Shown here: positions 252 to 16,131 of the stretch, one piece after another
Numbering within the stretch: the stretch's first letter is position 1
Layout: each line of letters starts with the position of its first letter
Assembly (NCBI GenBank): GCA_040758355.1
Contig: JBFLWF010000026.1
Location: 1-34,716 of the forward strand
Direction: 5' to 3'
Length of the DNA: 34,716 nt
Source: Nitrospirota bacterium
GTDB lineage: Bacteria; Nitrospirota; Thermodesulfovibrionia; Thermodesulfovibrionales; Dissulfurispiraceae
Notes under the pieces: model-generated
Told to the model about the DNA's origin: nothing
Seen by the model: the letters and a program-made list of their open reading frames with translations, nothing else
Databases searched by the model: none
Translations under genes and position numbers: made by a program

Positions 252-279
252 TTGACTTTATCTGGATTTTGTCTAAAAT
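252..279 (+). promoter_or_regulatory. sigma70-type promoter of the activator gene
   Basis: TTGACT-N16-TAAAAT, upstream of RBS GGGGAGG and ATG 323. Confidence 0.55.
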
Positions 280-286
280 GAAGACA
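270..286. promoter_or_regulatory. TGT-N11-ACA site overlapping the -10 (putative autoregulatory operator)
   Basis: TGTCTAAAATGAAGACA, the same 17-bp motif found upstream of the sigma54 promoters. Confidence 0.6.
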
Positions 287-322: not shown

Positions 323-1774
323 ATGGCTCGTTTATATCCGCGCATTGCAAGGAATATTCCTGTGGAGGTAGATGCAAAGCATATAAGAACAGAAGGGATG
401 CTTGCCAACCTCGGCATGAATGGCGCTTTTCTGATCCCCGATAAGAAATTAACCGGGGACAATGATAATGTTCTGCTTAAATACAATCTTTCCGAATTTG
501 GAGGTTTTGAGCACAGCGGCAAGATTATCAGGAAGGACAGGAGTGGTTACGCCTTAAAATTTTACGATCTTGACATCACTGCAAAGGTTAAACTCTGGAA
601 ATATATAGCTGATAATCTGACTGCTATTAACGAATGTCCTTATTGCGGAGAGAAGTATAATAAAATGCCGATGGTCTGTAATGCCTGCGGCTGGGAGCTT
701 ACCTTCAATTCCCCGGAATATTTTGCATATCACGAAAAGCAGAGCCTTCTTAAAAAATTATATTCAGAGGCAAATAGTCTCACTATAGATTATTTACAGA
801 GACTGATTAATTTTATGGAAGTAGAAATCCTGAAGACAGGCGGCAGCGAAGGGTTTCAGGAGTTTGTTGGGGCGAGCAGTGTTATGTTAGAGGTATTCTC
901 AAAAATCAGGAAGGTGGCTCCAACAGACCTTCCGGTGCTTATACTTGGCGAAAGTGGCACCGGCAAGGAATTGACTGCATTGGCAATTCATGAGAGGAGC
1001 CTGAGAAAGGACAAGACTTTCGTCACCATAAACTGTGCTGCGATACCAGAAGGTCTGCTTGAGGCAGAACTCTTTGGCTACGAAAGGGGGGCATTTACCG
1101 GAGCGTATGCCAGCAAAAAGGGAAAATTTGAGTGCGCGGGTGGCGGTACTATTTTCTTAGATGAGATTGGAGACATGCCTCTAAGCCTTCAATCAAAGCT
1201 TTTGAGATTCCTTCAGGACAGGGTTATTGAAAGGATAGGGGCGATAGGCGGGAAAAAAGTTGATGTGCGGCTTATTGCTGCTACTAACCGTGACCTCGGC
1301 TCAGCCATTGCAGAAGGCAGGTTCAGAAACGACCTTTATTACAGATTGAATGCCTTCACGATAAGTCTTCCTCCGGTTAGAGAGAGGGGGGAGGATAAAG
1401 TAATACTTGCAAAGCATTTTCTTAACAGATTTTGCAGGGAGATGGGTTTAACAAAGACATTTACAGGAGAAGCAATAGAGGCTGTAAGGGCCTACCCATG
1501 GCCCGGCAATGTCAGGGAGATGATTAATAAAATAAGAAGGGCTATTGTGATGGCTGAGGCCAACTCCATAAGTCAGCGGGATTTGGATTTAGCTGCGCAA
1601 CAGACAATGGATGTATCGAAGGATACAGGCTTGCGGGATGCAATAGAAAAAATTGAAGTGCAGAAGATTAAAGAGACATTGAATACCTGCGGCAATAATA
1701 TCTCGAGAGCAGCCAGGCAATTGGGTGTGAGCCGCCAGAGCCTTTACAACTACAAAAAGAAGTACGGCATATAA
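323..1774 (+). CDS. sigma54-dependent enhancer-binding protein with N-terminal PilZ-like domain and zinc ribbon
   Basis: RLYPR (RxxxR) and NLGMNG PilZ-like motifs; CPYC/CNAC; Walker A GESGTGKE; GAFTGA; Walker B FLDEIG; WPGNVRE; C-terminal Fis-type HTH. Confidence 0.95.
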   Translation: MARLYPRIARNIPVEVDAKHIRTEGMLANLGMNGAFLIPDKKLTGDNDNVLLKYNLSEFGGFEHSGKIIRKDRSGYALKFYDLDITAKVKLWKYIADNLTAINECPYCGEKYNKMPMVCNACGWELTFNSPEYFAYHEKQSLLKKLYSEANSLTIDYLQRLINFMEVEILKTGGSEGFQEFVGASSVMLEVFSKIRKVAPTDLPVLILGESGTGKELTALAIHERSLRKDKTFVTINCAAIPEGLLEAELFGYERGAFTGAYASKKGKFECAGGGTIFLDEIGDMPLSLQSKLLRFLQDRVIERIGAIGGKKVDVRLIAATNRDLGSAIAEGRFRNDLYYRLNAFTISLPPVRERGEDKVILAKHFLNRFCREMGLTKTFTGEAIEAVRAYPWPGNVREMINKIRRAIVMAEANSISQRDLDLAAQQTMDVSKDTGLRDAIEKIEVQKIKETLNTCGNNISRAARQLGVSRQSLYNYKKKYGI

Positions 1775-1801: not shown

Positions 1802-1818
1802 TGTCCATAGGTTTTACA
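1802..1818. promoter_or_regulatory. Upstream activator sequence (TGT-N11-ACA) for P1
   Basis: TGTCCATAGGTTTTACA, starting 71 bp before the GG of the -24 box. IHF-like AATCAAAGGAATT at 1853-1865. Confidence 0.75.
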
Positions 1819-1871
1819 CCGATTAATAATCCCGCCTTTATAACTTCAATAAAATCAAAGGAATTGCAGAC

Positions 1872-1886
1872 AGGCATATTCTTTGC
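1872..1886 (+). promoter_or_regulatory. sigma54 -24/-12 promoter P1
   Basis: AGGCAT-ATTCT-TTGC matches TGGCAC-N5-TTGC with correct GG-N10-GC spacing. Confidence 0.8.
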
Positions 1887-1936
1887 TCAATCAAGAATGG
1901 AATATTTTTTCAAAGGGGATGCAGGTGGGCAGGAAT

Positions 1937-2146
1937 ATGGCAGTGAATGCGATAAAAGGGGCGGGGGCATTTAACAAGACGGTCATAAGGTGCCCCCATC
2001 TAATAAAATGGGCCATACATACATGTAAGGCAGGAGATAAGCCTTATGCCCCGAGCCTTTTTGAGCTCATGGAATACTGCACAACCGGAGACCATAGAAA
2101 ATGCCCTTTTTATTTTAGAAATAAGGAATGTAGGGGGATTTCATAA
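1937..2146 (+). CDS. Small Cys-rich hypothetical protein (69 aa)
   Basis: First ORF after P1, with AGGA RBS. Pattern CPHL..C..YxPSxFELxEYC..HxKCPFY suggests metal binding. The TTG start at 1883 overlaps the promoter and is unlikely. Confidence 0.7.
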   Translation: MAVNAIKGAGAFNKTVIRCPHLIKWAIHTCKAGDKPYAPSLFELMEYCTTGDHRKCPFYFRNKECRGIS

Positions 2147-2168
2147 GGGGGACAAAGTCCCCCTTATG
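2142..2168. repeat. Perfect 12-bp inverted repeat (RNA hairpin, no U-tract)
   Basis: CATAAGGGGGAC-AAA-GTCCCCCTTATG. Confidence 0.85.
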
Positions 2169-2184
2169 CCAGGAGGAGATAAAG

Positions 2185-2259
2185 ATGGACTTGATTTCTA
2201 TTTTAATGCTCTTACTGCCTTTAGCAGGCTGCATATACGCCTTTAACTTTAAGGCTTAA
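2185..2259 (+). CDS. Putative 24-aa hydrophobic micro-protein with LAGC lipobox-like motif
   Basis: Strong RBS AGGAGGAG at 2171-2178. Hand translation MDLISILMLLLPLAGCIYAFNFKA. Confidence 0.55.
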   Translation: MDLISILMLLLPLAGCIYAFNFKA

Positions 2260-2332
2260 GGCCGATTAACGATATTTTGGTCTACAAAAAAGCGGCTCTA
2301 AATGCATACCGACTTCATGAAAGTGAATACCC

Positions 2333-4348
2333 ATGGATCTTGAATTTATCGATACACGCTCATTGTCCGCCATACAGGATTCCATTTCAGAAATAACCGA
2401 CCTGTCTTTCTCCACCTATGACAGCGGTGGCGCCCTGTTGGCTCCTCCAAAGAAAGAGGACAGGCTGCTTGCCCAGATAAAGTCCTATGCCTCCGGCAGA
2501 GAGGAATATGAAAGATTCATCCGCGATGGAATAGAAAGGGCAGTTTTAAGGAAGGAGACATCCGTTATTAAAGGGATTGCCAATCAGCACCATCTTTTTA
2601 TCCCCATTGATGTTAACGGCTTTAAACTTGTTCTTGTCAGCAGTCCATTTTACTTTATAAGAACAGAATTTGAGGATTTTTTGATTAAAAAGGGGGAATA
2701 TTTCGGTTTTTTGCTATCACATCTTGAATCATGGCTGGAGACAATTAATTTTAAAGACTACCCATCTGTTCAAAAAATATCGACCCATGTAAAATCCATA
2801 TTCGAAACATTCCTGCAGGGCAGTTACGAAAAGAATCTGAACCGCAGGAGGTACCAGATGGCCAAGACAATGATAGATCTCACATTCAATACCCAATTGC
2901 CGGTACCTGTAAAAGATTTTTACTCATCGTTTCTTGATGCAATACTCTTTCTCTTTAGTGTTGACACCGTCTCTGTAATGGTCAAGGAGAAGAATTTTTT
3001 TAAGACTGCCATAGCTTCAGGCAGGTCGCAGGATGATGTAAGGACTTTAAGAATGAAGGAAGATAATCCAATGGTCATCCGTTCTGTAGAAGGCTTTATT
3101 CCGGAATTCACAAATGATGTCATGGAAATCTCTAAGCTCGGTTTTCCGGAGAGCATAACATCACTGCATATCTTCCCTCTTTTGTGCAGGAACAACACCT
3201 ATGGTTTAGCGGTCATATACAACTCCGTTTTATCAAGGGAGGAATCCTACAGCATTTTAGAGTTCTGTAAGCTTTCATCGCTGGTACTTAAAAACCTTTC
3301 TTTACAAAATGCCCGTGAAAATTGCATCGATAAAATAACGGCACTAAACACAGCAGCAACAAAATTAACGCCAAAGCTTCATAATCTCGATATCCTTTAT
3401 GAGACCATTGTGGATACGGCCACAGAGCTTCTAAGGTCAGAAAAGGGCTCCCTCATGGTGCCAGAAGATGGCAGCTTACTGATAAAAGCTGTAAAGGGTA
3501 TAAACAAGTGGCTTATACAGGATATAAAGATAAGAATAGGAGAGGGAATTGCAGGAAAGGTATTTGAAGATGGCGAACCACTCCTTGTAAAAGATGTAGC
3601 AAAGGCCGGGATGCCGTATATCAAACCCCGAAGCCATTATAAAACAGGCTCCTTTGTCAGTGTGCCGATGAAATTTGCTTCCGAGACAATAGGCGTCCTC
3701 AGTATTTCGGATAAAATAACAGGGGAAGAGTTTACAGGACAGGATATGGATGTGCTCAACTACTTCTCGTCTCATGCCTCGATAGCTTTAAAGACTTCAA
3801 GTTATTACAACCTGGCTGAAAAAATGAAAGAGCTTTCTATTACAGACCCTCTGACAGGGGTCTTTAATAAACGATACCTTCAGGAGCGTTTCGAAGAGGA
3901 GATCCGCCGCTCGGAGCGTTATGATCTTGTTTTTTCCGTCGCAATATTCGATATTGATTATTTCAAGATCTTCAATGACACAGAAGGCCATCTCGCAGGA
4001 GACAATGCATTAAAAGGAATTGCCCGTATAGCCCACGGGTCTTTAAGGGCGAATGATATTTTAGCGAGATTCGGCGGCGAAGAATTCGCCATTTTAATGC
4101 CCCAGACAGACAATGAGAAAAAAGAGGCATTTGTCGTTGCAGAAAGAATAAGAGAGAGCATACGGGCGTCCCTCACCCGCAAGTGGGAAAAGTTTCCGTA
4201 TCCATCGATAACAGTGAGCATAGGCATATCATGCTTCCCCGACGATGGCAGGAGTATGGACGAACTGATAGAAAGCGCTGACAGGGCGCTTTACAAGGCA
4301 AAGGCATTGGGGAAAGATAGAACCGTTATATTTAAAAAAGAAGATTAA
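2333..4348 (+). CDS. Diguanylate cyclase (PocR-like sensor, GAF domains, GGEEF)
   Basis: SITDPLTG, DIDYFK, RAND (RxxD I-site) five residues before GGEEF, ADRALYKAK. The N-terminus resembles PocR; GAF motifs GEGIAGKV and FVSVPM are present. Confidence 0.93.
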   Translation: MDLEFIDTRSLSAIQDSISEITDLSFSTYDSGGALLAPPKKEDRLLAQIKSYASGREEYERFIRDGIERAVLRKETSVIKGIANQHHLFIPIDVNGFKLVLVSSPFYFIRTEFEDFLIKKGEYFGFLLSHLESWLETINFKDYPSVQKISTHVKSIFETFLQGSYEKNLNRRRYQMAKTMIDLTFNTQLPVPVKDFYSSFLDAILFLFSVDTVSVMVKEKNFFKTAIASGRSQDDVRTLRMKEDNPMVIRSVEGFIPEFTNDVMEISKLGFPESITSLHIFPLLCRNNTYGLAVIYNSVLSREESYSILEFCKLSSLVLKNLSLQNARENCIDKITALNTAATKLTPKLHNLDILYETIVDTATELLRSEKGSLMVPEDGSLLIKAVKGINKWLIQDIKIRIGEGIAGKVFEDGEPLLVKDVAKAGMPYIKPRSHYKTGSFVSVPMKFASETIGVLSISDKITGEEFTGQDMDVLNYFSSHASIALKTSSYYNLAEKMKELSITDPLTGVFNKRYLQERFEEEIRRSERYDLVFSVAIFDIDYFKIFNDTEGHLAGDNALKGIARIAHGSLRANDILARFGGEEFAILMPQTDNEKKEAFVVAERIRESIRASLTRKWEKFPYPSITVSIGISCFPDDGRSMDELIESADRALYKAKALGKDRTVIFKKED

Positions 4349-4350
4349 GG

Positions 4351-4367
4351 TGTAAGGTTTCTTTACA
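4351..4367. promoter_or_regulatory. Upstream activator sequence (TGT-N11-ACA) for P2
   Basis: TGTAAGGTTTCTTTACA, 82 bp before the GG (about one helical turn more than the others). IHF-like AATCAGCATTTTT at 4412-4424. Confidence 0.7.
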
Positions 4368-4431
4368 AATCGCAAAGAAATTATCCAAATCTTTTTAGAC
4401 TAATCCTTTAAAATCAGCATTTTTGCAAATC

Positions 4432-4446
4432 TGGCACATAATCTGC
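4432..4446 (+). promoter_or_regulatory. sigma54 -24/-12 promoter P2
   Basis: TGGCAC-ATAAT-CTGC. Confidence 0.8.
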
Positions 4447-4516
4447 TTAACAATTTAACAATAGGGGGTATCTGGCGATGGCATCTGATAGATGGTTGTT
4501 ATGGAGGATGTATTAC

Positions 4517-4711
4517 ATGAACAAGCACAGGGCAGAGACTCTTATCTCTATACTCATGGAATCGCCCATATATCTGACCCTTCCCATCGAGGCGAGGCGC
4601 TCTCTTCTAATAAGCCTGTTGGATAGCTATCCTTCCCTTTTCGATGCATGGGATTACGATGAAGAAGTCGAGTTCCGGTATGAGTTTGAACAAGCGGGAA
4701 ATCCTCATTGA
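4517..4711 (+). CDS. Small hypothetical protein (64 aa; alternative start 4478)
   Basis: Downstream of P2, RBS GGAGG at 4503-4507. Sequence MNKHRAETLISILMESPIYLTLP... with an acidic tail. Confidence 0.7.
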   Translation: MNKHRAETLISILMESPIYLTLPIEARRSLLISLLDSYPSLFDAWDYDEEVEFRYEFEQAGNPH

Positions 4712-4760
4712 GGTTACTGTAAAAAGCTTTTAACAGTTGATTAAACCCATTTAATACAAT

Positions 4761-4777
4761 TGTCCATCGTTTTGACA
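4761..4777. promoter_or_regulatory. Upstream activator sequence (TGT-N11-ACA) for P3
   Basis: TGTCCATCGTTTTGACA, 70 bp before the GG. Confidence 0.75.
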
Positions 4778-4829
4778 CATCTGAAAATTCAAACCATAGA
4801 AAACCTTGCAATTCCGCTATTGTTCTGAC

Positions 4830-4844
4830 AGGCATGTCTTTTGC
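4830..4844 (+). promoter_or_regulatory. sigma54 -24/-12 promoter P3 (glucan synthase operon)
   Basis: AGGCAT-GTCTT-TTGC. The context GACAGGCAT..TTTGCTCAA is nearly identical to P1. Confidence 0.8.
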
Positions 4845-4879
4845 TCAAATGACAGAAAACATATAAGGAAGAAATAATA

Positions 4880-7078
4880 ATGGCATCTGACAGGACTTTT
4901 CATATAGAGCGGGTAAAGGGAACAACTTTTATAGCACTGCTGTCTATAGTTGTGACTGCCTATTATCTCATATGGCGTTTTAACACACTCAATCCTGATG
5001 CGATGGGCTTCTCCATTGTCCTTTACTCTGCAGAGGTCTATGGTTTTATAACAACCCTGATGTTCTTCTTCATGATATGGAAGCCCAGAAAGAGGTTTTC
5101 TATTGCTCCGGAGCAGAGTCTCACAGTGGATGTATTCATTCCTACTTTAAATGAGGATGTGGAACTTCTGAGGAAGACGGTTTTAGGATGCCTCAACATG
5201 ACCTATCCCCATAAGACCTATATCCTTGATGACGGCAGGAGGCCGGAAGTCGAGACTCTTGCAGGGGAGCTTGGATGTGGATATATTGCAAGACCGGATA
5301 ACAGGGATGCCAAGGCAGGGAATCTCAACCATGCCATGGGAAGGACAGATGGTGAATTCATTGCTGTCTTTGATGCCGACCATGTGCCCCAGCCCGATTT
5401 TCTTGATAAGGTTCTGGGATATTTCAGGGACAGAAGGGTTGCCTTTGTCCAGACACCCCAGGATTTTTACAACATTGACTCCTTCCAGCACAGATTGACA
5501 AAAAGTAAAAAGCTCTGGACAGAGCAATCGCTCTTTTTCTCCTTGATACAGCCGGGAAAGGACAAATGGAATGCAGCCTTCTTCTGTGGGAGTTGTGCGG
5601 TTCTCAGGAGGAAGACATTGGAGGATATAGGAGGTTTTGCAACAGGAACAGTGACCGAAGACCTGCATACATCCATAAGGCTTCATGCAAAGGGGTGGAA
5701 ATCTATTTATCACAACGAGAGTCTTGCATACGGCATTGCTGCCCCTGTGCTTTATCCTTTCCAGCAGCAGAGGCTCAGATGGGGGCAGGGAGCAATGCAG
5801 GTCTTAACAAGGGATAACCCTGTTTTTATAAAGGGACTTACATTTCCCCAGAGGATATGCTATCTGGCATCCATAATCACATATTTTGACGGTTTTCAGA
5901 AGGCTGTTTATTATGTCTCTCCGATAATCGTACTTCTTACCGGTCTTTATCCGATTAAGGCCATTAATATGGATTTCCTCATCAGGTTCATCCCGCACCT
6001 CGGCCTTTCCCTCTGGGCTTATGAGGAGATGACAAAGGGCTTTGGCAGGATTTTTCTTATGGAGCAGTATAACATGATAAGGTTTAACACCTTTATCAAG
6101 TCTACTACGGGTTTCTTTAAGAATAAAAAACTGCGATTTAAAGTAACGCCGAAAACAGGATTCGAGAGAACACATATAAGAATGCTTATGTCCCAGGCGT
6201 TGATATTGTCTGTCGGCATTCTGTCCATTTTCTGGACAATCTCCGGACTTGCCCCTTATAAGATTGACAGGGGAATTATTGCTGCAAACATATTCTGGGC
6301 TTTGATAAATACGGGGATCGCATATACTGCGGTCAGATACGCATTAAGAAAAGTCCAGAGGAGGAAGGACTTCAGGTTCCCTGTCAATCTTCCCGCCCTT
6401 GCTGTTTTTCCAAATCCGGGGAGCCGCTTGATTGTAGCGGAGGATCTCCATGAAAGGGGGGCGTTAATACACAGCCCTGAGAGGTTTAAGTCCGGCTCTA
6501 TATTAACACTCCGTCTTCCCCTTGCTCACAGGACAGTTGAAATAAAGGGCAGGGTGCTTTATTCAAAAGAGGGTAGTGACCGTGGGATTCCAATTTTCCG
6601 TCATGGCATTGAGTTTGAGAAGGTATCAGGGGATGCGAGGGATGCAATAGTCATGTTCAACTTTTCCTATGCCGTCAATAAAATGATGAATAACCTTTCC
6701 ATTGCCGAAGAGACTCCTCTTTTAAAGATCCATCGAATGTTAAGGGGCACGGCAATTCAAAAACGGGGTGTAAGACACCACTTGCATTTGCCGGGAACCC
6801 GCTGGATTAGTGCAAAAGAGCAACTGCCATTTGTTACAGAAGACATAAGCGACTACGGTATGAGGATATTCACATACAGTGAAATCAAGGAGCCTTTTAT
6901 ATCCTTTGACCTTGTCTCCCATAATGGGTGGCCATTGCTTAAAGGGAGAATCATATGGCGTAAAGGTATGGATTTTCATGGTAATAAGGCATGGCAGTAT
7001 GGCGTGAAATTTTTGATTGAAACAGAGAAGGTTGTTCACAAGGAAGTATTGGGAGGGCTTGTACACGCCAATGCCTGA
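4880..7078 (+). CDS. bcsA: BcsA-like GT2 beta-glucan (cellulose) synthase catalytic subunit with two PilZ domains
   Basis: LDDG, AKAGNLN, FDADH, QTPQ, FFCGS, VTED and QRLRW motifs; multiple TM helices; PilZ RKDFR/DLHERG and a second PilZ with DISDYG. Confidence 0.88.
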   Translation: MASDRTFHIERVKGTTFIALLSIVVTAYYLIWRFNTLNPDAMGFSIVLYSAEVYGFITTLMFFFMIWKPRKRFSIAPEQSLTVDVFIPTLNEDVELLRKTVLGCLNMTYPHKTYILDDGRRPEVETLAGELGCGYIARPDNRDAKAGNLNHAMGRTDGEFIAVFDADHVPQPDFLDKVLGYFRDRRVAFVQTPQDFYNIDSFQHRLTKSKKLWTEQSLFFSLIQPGKDKWNAAFFCGSCAVLRRKTLEDIGGFATGTVTEDLHTSIRLHAKGWKSIYHNESLAYGIAAPVLYPFQQQRLRWGQGAMQVLTRDNPVFIKGLTFPQRICYLASIITYFDGFQKAVYYVSPIIVLLTGLYPIKAINMDFLIRFIPHLGLSLWAYEEMTKGFGRIFLMEQYNMIRFNTFIKSTTGFFKNKKLRFKVTPKTGFERTHIRMLMSQALILSVGILSIFWTISGLAPYKIDRGIIAANIFWALINTGIAYTAVRYALRKVQRRKDFRFPVNLPALAVFPNPGSRLIVAEDLHERGALIHSPERFKSGSILTLRLPLAHRTVEIKGRVLYSKEGSDRGIPIFRHGIEFEKVSGDARDAIVMFNFSYAVNKMMNNLSIAEETPLLKIHRMLRGTAIQKRGVRHHLHLPGTRWISAKEQLPFVTEDISDYGMRIFTYSEIKEPFISFDLVSHNGWPLLKGRIIWRKGMDFHGNKAWQYGVKFLIETEKVVHKEVLGGLVHANA

Positions 7079-7205
7079 CAAAAATCATTTAGAAAATTTA
7101 GAAATGGAGTCAAAAGTGAGGATTGTTTGTCTTGAATGCCTTTACTGTCATTTCGAAAACAACCTATCAGACTGCAAGGAATTTCAGGCCATACATTGCC
7201 TTTAG
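7071..7205 (+). CDS. Possible 44-aa Cys-rich micro-protein
   Basis: ATG overlaps the bcsA stop (ATGCCTGA), with GGGAGGG upstream. Contains CLECLYCH...C...C and fills the gap up to the next RBS. Confidence 0.35.
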   Translation: MPDKNHLENLEMESKVRIVCLECLYCHFENNLSDCKEFQAIHCL

Positions 7206-7224
7206 AAAAAACACAGGAGGGTAT

Positions 7225-7947
7225 ATGAGAAATAGAAAAGTGTTTTTTATATTTGTATTTGCGATCTTCGTGTTGTTTTCTTCCGACTCGAGGGCAGCTT
7301 CTTTCAGTTTGCTCTTCGGAGGAGAGGCAGACACAGAGGGACAGAGTTATATTTACGCAGGTGTAATCGGAGAAAGCCCGCTGCAGAAGAAGCTTTCCCT
7401 TATGTATAAGCTGTGGCTTGACCATCTCACATACGAATTTGAAAAGGACAACGATACGATTAAGGCAAAAGCGCCTGCCTTTCAGCCGGCCCTTGGCCTG
7501 AAATTTCTTGATAGTGGGTGCAGCACAACCCTCTGGGTAGGCTGGGAGCACAGGAATACAAATATAAAGCCCGTCAGGGAAAATGTGGAAGTAAGGGGTG
7601 TTACGGACAGCCTTGTGCTGCAGTTCGAATTTAATAAATGGACAGAGAAATCGACAAATTTTAATATCATTGCAAGCTACAGTACAGAGAACAGCTATGT
7701 CTGGACAAGGGGGAGAATAAAACAGGAGCTTTCATCTTACCCCCTCGGACGTGACCTTCCCTTGAGGATAGGGCTTGAGGTTGTCGGACAGGGGAATAAG
7801 GACTATAGTGCTTTTCAGGTTGGACCGCTATTAGAAATATATAGCCTCGAAAAAAATGCCTCCTTTGCAATCCGCGGAGGATATAAGCGCAGCTCAAGCA
7901 ATGACAATAGCGCCTATGGAGGCATTGAACTCTTTTTCGGCTTTTAG
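7225..7947 (+). CDS. bcsS: BcsS/YaiO-like outer-membrane beta-barrel protein
   Basis: RBS AGGAGG; signal peptide; amphipathic beta-strands ending in a C-terminal Phe (YGGIELFFGF); located between the bcsA copies. Confidence 0.7.
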   Translation: MRNRKVFFIFVFAIFVLFSSDSRAASFSLLFGGEADTEGQSYIYAGVIGESPLQKKLSLMYKLWLDHLTYEFEKDNDTIKAKAPAFQPALGLKFLDSGCSTTLWVGWEHRNTNIKPVRENVEVRGVTDSLVLQFEFNKWTEKSTNFNIIASYSTENSYVWTRGRIKQELSSYPLGRDLPLRIGLEVVGQGNKDYSAFQVGPLLEIYSLEKNASFAIRGGYKRSSSNDNSAYGGIELFFGF

Positions 7948-7949
7948 GT

Positions 7950-9803
7950 GTGCGGCGTATGCAGCCCGGTATGTCCTTCCAAAGGGCAAAAGGGGTTGGC
8001 TTTATTGCCCTTTTTTCCATTTCAGTCACTGCCTATTATCTCATATGGCGTCTCGACACATTTAATCCAGAGGCAATGGTTTTTTCCATTATACTTTACA
8101 GCGCGGAAATATATGGCTTCATAACAACCCTGATGTTCTTTTTCATGACATGGAAACCAACAGAGAGGATTCCCATGGCCCCTGAACAGGGTTTCACCGT
8201 TGATGTATTCATTCCAACACTGAACGAGGATGCGGAACTGCTCAGGAAGACGGTTTTAGGATGCCTTAATATGGGTTACCCTCACGGGACTTATATCCTC
8301 GATGACGGCAGGAGGCCGGAGGTTGAGGCCCTTGCAAAAGAACTCGGCTGCGAATATATAGCGAGGAATGTCAACAGGGATGCAAAGGCAGGGAATCTCA
8401 ACCATGCCCTCGGCAGGACAGATGGCGATTTCATTGCTGTCTTTGATGCAGACCATGTGCCGCAGCCTGATTTCCTTGAAAGGCTCCTCGGATATTTCAG
8501 GGATGAAAGTGTTGCCTTTGTCCAGACACCGCAGGATTTTTACAATATAGACTCTTTTCAACACAGATTGACAAAAGGCAAGAAACTATGGAGCGAACAG
8601 TCTCTATTCTATTCCCTTATACAGGCAGGAAAAGACAGATGGAATGCAACCTATTTCTGCGGGAGTTGTGCAATTTTAAGGCGAAAGGCATTGGAGGATA
8701 TAGGAGGATTTGCCACAGGCACGGTGACCGAAGACCTGCATACATCGATAAGGCTCCATGCGAGGGGATGGAAATCCGTTTACCATAACGAGAGCCTTGC
8801 ATACGGCATTGCTGCCCCTGTCTTTTATCCTTTTCAGAGACAGAGGCTTAGATGGGGGCAGGGGGCAATGCAGGTTCTGATAAGGGATAATCCCCTTTTC
8901 ATAAAGGGGCTTACTATTGCACAGAGGATTTGCTATCTGGCATCGATGACAACATATTTTGACGGCTTTCAGAAGGCTGTTTATTATTTCTCACCCATTA
9001 TTATCCTCTCTACAGGTCTTTATCCAATTATGGCATTCGATACGGATTTCCTCATCAGGTTTATCCCGCACCTCGGTCTTTCCATCTGGGCATACGAGGA
9101 GATGTCAAGGGGGTTCGGGAGAACCTTCCTCATAGAGCAGTATAGCATGATAAGGTTTTATACCCTCATCAGGTCTATTACAGGATTTTTAAAAAATAAG
9201 AGGCTGCGATTTAAGGTGACGCCAAAGACAGAATATAAAAAGACAGACCTTAAAATGCTCTTACCCCAGGTTTTGATACTTTCAGGAAGCGTTATAGCCA
9301 TCTCATATGCCATATCAGGGCTTGCCGCTTATAAAATTGAAAGGGGGATTGTTATAGCCAATATCTTCTGGGCTATTGTGAATACAGGCCTTTCATATGC
9401 TGCTGTTAAATACGCAATAGAGAAGATCCAGAGGAGAAGGGACTTCAGGTTCCCTGCCAATATCCTCGCAAGAAACCGTTTGATTGTAGTTGATGACCTC
9501 CACGAAAGAGGGGCGTCGATCCAGACAACCGAGAGGTTTGAGCTTGGATCCATATTATCATTACGCCTTTCCCTCGGTGACAAGACAGTTGAAATAAAGG
9601 GCATAGTCCTTTATATGAAAAAGAGCACTAATAGAAGAATCCCTGTCTACCACTATGGCATTGAGTTTGAGAAAAACGCAATGGATGTAAAGGATGCCAT
9701 TACTGCATATAATTTTTCCTTTGCCGTTAAGAAGATGATGACAGGCTTTTCTTTTGCGGGCATGACCCCTCTGGCAAACCTGCGGGCATATTTAAAACTG
9801 TAA
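7950..9803 (+). CDS. bcsA: Second BcsA-like GT2 glucan synthase (single PilZ)
   Basis: Same catalytic motifs (DADH, YFCGS, TED, QRLRW); long near-identical DNA stretches shared with 4880-7078; start uncertain (7950 GTG or 7959 ATG). Confidence 0.87.
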   Translation: MRRMQPGMSFQRAKGVGFIALFSISVTAYYLIWRLDTFNPEAMVFSIILYSAEIYGFITTLMFFFMTWKPTERIPMAPEQGFTVDVFIPTLNEDAELLRKTVLGCLNMGYPHGTYILDDGRRPEVEALAKELGCEYIARNVNRDAKAGNLNHALGRTDGDFIAVFDADHVPQPDFLERLLGYFRDESVAFVQTPQDFYNIDSFQHRLTKGKKLWSEQSLFYSLIQAGKDRWNATYFCGSCAILRRKALEDIGGFATGTVTEDLHTSIRLHARGWKSVYHNESLAYGIAAPVFYPFQRQRLRWGQGAMQVLIRDNPLFIKGLTIAQRICYLASMTTYFDGFQKAVYYFSPIIILSTGLYPIMAFDTDFLIRFIPHLGLSIWAYEEMSRGFGRTFLIEQYSMIRFYTLIRSITGFLKNKRLRFKVTPKTEYKKTDLKMLLPQVLILSGSVIAISYAISGLAAYKIERGIVIANIFWAIVNTGLSYAAVKYAIEKIQRRRDFRFPANILARNRLIVVDDLHERGASIQTTERFELGSILSLRLSLGDKTVEIKGIVLYMKKSTNRRIPVYHYGIEFEKNAMDVKDAITAYNFSFAVKKMMTGFSFAGMTPLANLRAYLKL

Positions 9804-9886
9804 ATCGCGCAACATGTTTTTACATATTTCATTTCTGGTTAAATGATTGATTTATCAATCGCTCATCGGATTCATAATTTTAAATA

Positions 9887-9903
9887 TGTCTAAAGGCTTT
9901 ACA
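9887..9903. promoter_or_regulatory. Upstream activator sequence (TGT-N11-ACA) for P4
   Basis: TGTCTAAAGGCTTTACA, 71 bp before the GG. Confidence 0.78.
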
Positions 9904-9937
9904 CTGGTCATAACCAATCCCCTTCCGAACCCAGCAA

Positions 9938-9950
9938 AATCAAGGGTTTA
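9938..9950 (+). promoter_or_regulatory. IHF-binding site
   Basis: AATCAAGGGTTTA is an exact match to WATCAANNNNTTR, between the enhancer and the promoter. Confidence 0.7.
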
Positions 9951-9956
9951 AAACTC

Positions 9957-9971
9957 TGGCATATCCTTTGC
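9957..9971 (+). promoter_or_regulatory. sigma54 -24/-12 promoter P4 (fap operon)
   Basis: TGGCAT-ATCCT-TTGC. Confidence 0.85.
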
Positions 9972-9984
9972 GTATTAATAAAGC

Positions 9985-16067: not shown

Positions 16068-16131
16068 TGTCTAAAAGTTTTACACTGAATAATCTCCTGT
16101 CCTGACAAACCTCAATAAAATCAGGGTCTTA
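16068..16131 (+). promoter_or_regulatory. Enhancer plus IHF-like site without a -24/-12 core (orphan or relic promoter)
   Basis: TGTCTAAAAGTTTTACA (16068-16084) and AATCAGGGTCTTA (16119-16131), at the same 51-bp offset as in P1 and P4. No GG-N10-GC follows. Confidence 0.65.

Follow-up and report, generated by a model that had tools for sequence, protein, structure and literature searches.

Architecture of the locus

The stretch of DNA analysed here (the window) comprises 34,716 nucleotides of contig JBFLWF010000026.1 from a Nitrospirota bacterium (assembly GCA_040758355.1) and carries four σ54-type promoters, P1 to P4, downstream of a gene for a σ54 activator with an N-terminal PilZ domain. 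An earlier note on this DNA had listed the four promoters, with a shared enhancer and sites resembling those of integration host factor (IHF). How far does this layout stand out from the rest of the genome, which protein reads it, and what would it switch on? The elements on which the argument turns are the following.

252–279, forward strand: σ70-like promoter of the activator gene, TTGACT-16-TAAAAT, from a consensus scan
270–286, forward strand: TGT-N11-ACA palindrome overlapping the -10-like hexamer of that promoter
323–1774, forward strand: σ54 activator with PilZ domain (residues 3–96), Cys4 ribbon (C105–C122), AAA+ domain with GAFTGA and Fis-type helix-turn-helix (HTH), characterised with Pfam, NCBIfam, alignment, fold and trees
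1802–1887, forward strand: P1, with enhancer 1802–1818, IHF-like site 1853–1865 and σ54 box 1872–1887
4351–4447, forward strand: P2, one helical turn longer, with enhancer 4351–4367, IHF-like site 4412–4424 and σ54 box 4432–4447
4761–4845, forward strand: P3, with enhancer 4761–4777, σ54 box 4830–4845 and no clear IHF site
9887–9972, forward strand: P4, with enhancer 9887–9903, IHF-like site 9938–9950 and σ54 box 9957–9972
16068–16131, forward strand: remnant of a fifth promoter, with enhancer 16068–16084, full IHF-like site 16119–16131 and no σ54 box

The layout of all four promoters in the earlier list was confirmed, and two related sites, at 270 and 16068, had been overlooked. The TGT-N11-ACA enhancers were re-found at exactly 1802, 4351, 4761 and 9887, with the GGCA-N7-TGC boxes beginning at +71, +82, +70 and +71, and the AATCA(A/G) offsets from the enhancer start (+51 in P1, +61 in P2, none in P3, +51 in P4) were likewise reproduced. 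The IHF-like site is fixed relative to the σ54 box, lying 20, 21 and 20 bp before the GG in P1, P2 and P4; because it is locked to that box, the extra ~10 bp of P2 sit between the enhancer and the IHF site. The IHF consensus is WATCAR-N4-TTR, which is matched in full at P4 and at 16119, in part at P1 and P2, and not at all at P3. In the genome, ihfA scores above its cut-off and the best ihfB match below. The proposed enhancer consensus, TGTC(C/T)A-N5-TT(T/G)ACAC, has to be relaxed for P2, whose left half, TGTAAG, falls outside it; the 3′ ends read TTTACA in three of the four enhancers and TTGACA in P3. Imperfect extra palindromes or half-sites were also seen by eye upstream of P3 (4718–4735, N12 spacing) and P4 (9799–9824, N10 spacing), and these are possible second enhancers.

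Rarity of the layout in the genome and the phylum

The genome to which the window belongs (G000) has 2.77 Mb in 93 contigs and is 99% complete; by the labels of homologues and loci it falls within Nitrospirota, close to Dissulfurispira. A loosely defined pair of enhancer and σ54 box is not rare in it: 812 cores gave 49 pairings at 30–199 bp, of which 11 lie at 65–90 bp and four of these are P1–P4. As loose pairing is common genome-wide, significance depends on the clustering and on the fuller consensus. The strict pattern TGTM-N7-TTKACA, N52–68, GGCA-N7-TGC, derived from the window sites and orthologous sites, has four matches in the genome, all within the window, and its reversed control none. 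A genome-wide motif scan, which the earlier note had proposed as a check, was made with matrices from 18 enhancers and nine σ54 boxes, all from other genomes. At 68–85 bp it placed P1–P4 at ranks 1–4 (31.2, 27.4, 26.5 and 24.0; next 21.2), while seven control spacing bands returned 0–2 matches each at a score of at least 22; this ranking is not fully independent, because the training sites had been chosen with the window-derived pattern. Of 78 strict σ54-like boxes in the genome, three have AATCAR 19–21 bp before the GG, and each of these belongs to the window.

Over 401 genomes of the phylum, the strict pattern gave 80 matches in 55 genomes, against six matches for the control. The helical phasing noted for P1–P4 recurs among these 80, with spacings of 69–72 (25 matches), 73–76 (three) and 77–84 (52), in a distribution for which the pattern itself permitted only 69–85. 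The single match in the congener G013 was rejected, as it lies inside a coding gene. Is there a wider regulon? Among 14 candidates inspected elsewhere in the genome, no convincing intergenic enhancer with a σ54 box at 68–85 bp came to light; one has its σ54 box at +92 (contig C14) and one is a loose +71 match after another activator gene (C4:83127). High-scoring intergenic palindromes without a σ54 box occur at C20:36754, C12:36030, C7:88796 and C77:258, where they may serve in repression or belong to other regulators.

The activator and its relatives

The protein encoded at 323–1774 has the hallmarks of a σ54-dependent bacterial enhancer-binding protein (bEBP), namely GAFTGA, Walker A and B motifs and a Fis-type HTH, and rpoN scores above cut-off in the genome, which encodes 28 full bEBPs including this one. 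Its best NCBIfam match is TIGR02915 (PrsR) at 397 bits against a cut-off of 502.6, and the alignment begins only at model position 129, leaving the receiver part unmatched. In a tree of the AAA+ and HTH domains (LG+G4, with 12 of the 30 fetched PrsR rows), 17 PilZ-bearing rows form a clade sister to PrsR, both supported at 100/99 and apart from the 27 other bEBPs of the genome; a rapid tree built from the full set of 30 PrsR rows agrees. Both trees omit the duplicates L001 and L003 and the AAA+-less loci L014–L016 and L019–L024. The PilZ clade is thus a Nitrospirota clade sister to PrsR and not nested within it. The helix [ST]R[PQT][ST][LIVF]Y is present in 17/17 members of the clade and 29/30 PrsR proteins, and in 0/27 of the other bEBPs of the genome.

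The suggestion that the adjacent activator reads the sites agrees with the comparative evidence (helix, tree position and sites at orthologues), from which binding is predicted, and we consider it very probable that this protein regulates P1–P4. What the earlier note overlooked is that the protein belongs to a sister clade of PrsR with PilZ input, in a genome without a detected PrsR.

The N-terminal PilZ + Cys4 module was matched in 22 of the 401 genomes, 12 of them with a PilZ-clade activator, and CxxC-CxxC is invariant in the activator alignment. When the first 180 residues were compared with PDB sequences, no significant match emerged; the best, to ribosomal zinc ribbons, had an E of 0.055. 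At other Nitrospirota loci (L014–L016, L018–L025) the module sits on different outputs (methyltransferase, AraC HTH, unrelated bEBP), which suggests a mobile sensory unit.

Sites at orthologous loci

Do the sites accompany the orthologues? A palindrome lies at most 220 bp upstream of the activator's own gene at 11 of 13 PilZ-clade loci, compared with two of 11 control loci in which the N-terminal module is attached to other outputs. In the congeners G090 and G172, both activators are absent and the strict pattern has no match. A complete enhancer with a σ54 promoter directly follows the activator gene in five genomes (G000, G114, G264, G348 and G211). Promoters of the P2 type, at +82/83, follow the orthologues at loci L007, L011 and L012, and at L002 a P4-type promoter precedes a fap-like operon adjoining the activator gene. 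Two of these neighbourhoods are peculiar. In G332 an inverted-repeat element of ~220 bp separates the enhancer from the σ54 box, which brings their distance to 304 bp (L056 9338–9660). L002 (3802–11458) lies on a contig labelled Pseudomonadota, with an 86% identical activator and a fap-like operon that includes a 1110-residue protein; misbinning or transfer are both possible.

Genes behind the promoters

1937–2146, forward strand: Cys-rich open reading frame (ORF) of 69 residues after P1, frameshifted in congener G114, with a paralogue on contig C11
2333–4348, forward strand: PocR-GAF-GGDEF diguanylate cyclase, with GGEEF intact and RxxD
4478–4711, forward strand: small ORF of up to 77 residues after P2, with no Pfam match and with homologues in G332, G348 and G211 that likewise lie behind the activator gene
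4880–9803 (4880–7078, 7225–7947, 7950–9803), forward strand: BcsA-like GT2-PilZ protein, BcsS and second BcsA-like GT2-PilZ protein, after P3
10070–15229, forward strand: Fap-type amyloid operon after P4, with FapB-, FapC-, FapD (C39)- and FapF-like genes and two further ORFs

No terminator-like site was found between P1 and 2333, and the diguanylate cyclase gene may lie at the far end of the transcript from P1. By eye, no promoter like P1 was seen at the C11 paralogue of the 69-residue ORF. Between this ORF and the cyclase gene, positions 2185–2259 could encode a hydrophobic peptide of 24 residues with a strong ribosome site. Since the P2-type ORF follows the activator gene in three other genomes, P2 looks like the ancestral target. 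The two BcsA-like synthases score 453 and 456 bits with TIGR03030, below its cut-off of 699, and BcsB, BcsC and BcsZ had no matches in the window, to which that search was confined. For the Fap-like genes, the best NCBIfam matches all lie below their cut-offs. None of the genes after P1–P4 was identified as a PEP-CTERM gene by Pfam or NCBIfam.

Comparison with known systems

The promoter motif has been known since 2006: Haft et al. described the PEP-CTERM box as a 17-nt motif ending in TTTACA, a spacer of 62.8 ± 10.6 nt and a σ54 motif, which precedes PEP-CTERM genes and was assigned to PrsR (PMC1569441). The likeness to this box to which the earlier note had pointed is correct in motif and spacer (PMC1569441). 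RpoN dependence of a PEP-CTERM-type gene and a role of PrsK–PrsR in floc formation have been reported (PMC9850573, PMC9012009). What the window shares with that system is a 17-nt enhancer ending in TT(T/G)ACA ~53–65 nt before the σ54 box, a sister AAA+/HTH clade with an identical type of recognition helix, and a matrix or floc output (PMC9012009, PMC9850573). It differs in the input, which is a receiver domain in PrsR and PilZ + Cys4 here, in the left half-site, which is not TGTCG here, and in its targets, a cyclase, glucan synthases and Fap taking the place of PEP-CTERM proteins. No gene of the genome exceeds the TIGR02915 cut-off for PrsR; for PrsK (TIGR02916) there are only kinase-core matches, the best at 119 bits against 300; and exosortase has no match in the genome. 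A genome search for PEP-CTERM was blank, and as its positive controls also went undetected it is uninformative. In its way of working the system resembles PrsR with the PEP-CTERM box, but the missing receiver domain and the failure to find kinase or exosortase place it outside.

Among 34 genomes of the same family, 10 carry PrsR-like genes, and PrsR-bearing Nitrospirota have the same promoter layout, often with an IHF-like site, ahead of PEP-CTERM genes. Counted by eye, TGTCG forms the left half of 29 of the 41 matches from genomes that have PrsR only, against none of eight from genomes with the PilZ clade only, and it is absent from all 20 sites adjacent to PilZ-clade activators. This difference is a tendency, as some PrsR-like genomes have TGTCA. 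Twenty PrsR-genome promoters hand-picked from the 80 strict matches all carry TGTCG, a biased figure for which 29/41 is the unpicked count; in this set the first ORF has a PEP motif in 7/20 and an IHF-like element lies at 19–20 bp in 12/20.

Other c-di-GMP (cyclic di-GMP) effectors come close in one respect or another. BerB of Burkholderia cenocepacia is a c-di-GMP-binding bEBP that directs RpoN-dependent transcription toward exopolysaccharide, but it acts via a second regulator, BerA (PMC5552954). FleQ, FlrA and VpsR are c-di-GMP effectors of the bEBP family that control biofilm matrix; unlike the arrangement proposed here, their c-di-GMP binding is described for the AAA+ or REC part of the protein and not for a PilZ domain, and FleQ acts on pel with σ70 (PMC12564702, PMC7288161). 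MrkH of Klebsiella is a PilZ-containing transcription activator of biofilm genes, but it is no AAA+ σ54 activator and has another DNA-binding domain (PMC12564702). In the literature searched, which extended to neither subscription journals nor supplements, a PilZ-bEBP or this locus is not described.

The PilZ domain and the proposed mechanism

Is c-di-GMP the signal? The motifs of c-di-GMP-binding PilZ domains are RxxxR and [D/N]hSxxG (10.1101/814665). The N-terminus of the activator matches the PilZ domain of BcsA in fold (Z 11.8, rmsd 2.7 over 97 residues), and RxxxR is kept in all 17 members of the clade. A role for c-di-GMP is predicted from these two features and from the nature of the target genes; that it is the activating signal has, in our estimate, an even chance.

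We regard as the probable reading of the locus that P1–P4 are σ54 promoters with the PEP-CTERM-box layout, read by the PilZ-bearing activator, which would switch on biofilm-matrix genes upon c-di-GMP. An activator dimer would bind TGT(A/C)HA-N5-TT(G/T)ACA, and a bend made by IHF ~20 bp before the -24 box would let the enhancer at +70 or +81 loop onto the σ54 polymerase. Binding of c-di-GMP to the N-terminal PilZ domain would free the AAA+ domain, replacing phosphorylation by PrsK. The output would be a cellulose-like glucan synthase, itself PilZ-gated, together with Fap amyloid and the diguanylate cyclase, the latter providing positive feedback, while the site at 270 would serve autorepression. 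A broader proposal, which we advance tentatively and with rather less confidence, is that the PilZ clade arose by exchange of the PrsR receiver for PilZ + Cys4. Its members would then be AAA+ activators gated directly by c-di-GMP through PilZ. The clade would have retained the PEP-CTERM box in variant form and, in this genome, would drive a biofilm switch that reinforces itself, through the cyclase, the cellulose-like synthase and Fap amyloid, with CsgG added in the congener. In genomes with both regulators, one half-site position would insulate it from PrsR.

Several observations weigh against the probable reading. The second c-di-GMP motif is degenerate, NLGMNG in the window protein, and its strict form [DN]hSxxG occurs in only four of the 17 clade members; the structure model of the activator (mean pLDDT 50.7) is of low quality except in PilZ and HTH, falling below 50 over residues 124–359. 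Cellulose and Fap targets were seen only in G000, G114 and L002, the neighbourhoods retrieved for distant orthologues showing neither, and G114, ~90% identical at the locus, is weak evidence of conservation. That the cyclase gene is transcribed from P1 is a prediction. Eight of the 11 upstream palindromes have TTGACA as their right half, also a σ70 -35 hexamer, so that only the left half-site counts as independent evidence; the same overlap is compatible with autorepression. The strict pattern is present in only three of seven genomes with a PilZ-clade activator but no PrsR, and in 19 of 283 with neither. Overall the comparison stands at 36/118 genomes against those 19/283, related genomes not being independent.

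Could the activator read the sites and yet respond to something else? PilZ + Cys4 might sense a partner protein, a metal or redox state, having lost c-di-GMP binding, or c-di-GMP might inhibit, as in FleQ. The degenerate second motif and the invariant cysteines point this way, as do the fusions of the module to a methyltransferase, AraC or an unrelated bEBP, and loss of binding within PilZ families has been described (10.1101/814665). However, RxxxR is retained throughout the clade, the target genes encode a cyclase and synthases that are themselves PilZ-gated, and PA2989, a tetramer-type PilZ protein with Ser replacing D/N, is reported to bind c-di-GMP (10.1101/814665); we consider this alternative unlikely, if the most serious one.

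A different reader, or a shared one, would have to be sought among the 27 other bEBPs, for instance the one beside a prepilin-like gene on C14, which may be PilR-like. A related palindrome at C14:31821, before that gene, has a σ54 box at +92, which also counts against P1–P4 having a private reader; 41 enhancer-like sites score at least 12 genome-wide, and the 19 genomes with the pattern and neither activator fit another reader too. But the PrsR-type helix and tree position are found only in the local protein, with whose orthologues the sites travel, and such a reader appears quite improbable. Least credible, and very improbable in our view, is that the sites lack working control, either as PrsR boxes orphaned from a PEP-CTERM system (since lost, or a donor's) or as duplicates of a single promoter. 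PrsR-like genes do occur within the family, P1 and P3 have short flanks in common, and 16068 is a real remnant; yet the distribution of TGTCG given above tends to separate the two kinds of box, the spacers differ while the boxes are kept, and no PEP-CTERM gene was identified behind any of them.

Under the probable reading, a c-di-GMP effector architecture is indicated in which PilZ sits on a σ54 AAA+ activator, and operator, regulator and regulon for biofilm matrix become testable in a poorly studied phylum. PrsR and PilZ-clade boxes, which differ mainly at half-site position 5, offer a natural test of target separation between sister regulators.

The site at 270 and the remnant of a fifth promoter

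The palindrome at 270 is likely an autoregulatory site, judging from its position over the -10-like hexamer and from its counterparts upstream of 11 of the 13 orthologous genes. Matches to the σ70-like consensus are common by chance (six found against a shuffle mean of 10.9).

At 16068, comparison with congener G114 is instructive: there the same stretch is intact, with a σ54 box at +70 followed by a CsgG-family gene. Relative to L070 7366–8690, ~1.25 kb between 10-bp direct repeats are missing from the window, comprising the σ54 box, the CsgG-family gene and a second copy of an 83-residue ORF, and a csgG match was not found in the genome. The simplest reading is that a fifth promoter was lost in the window's lineage; its remnant now precedes an S8 protease gene and type II secretion genes.

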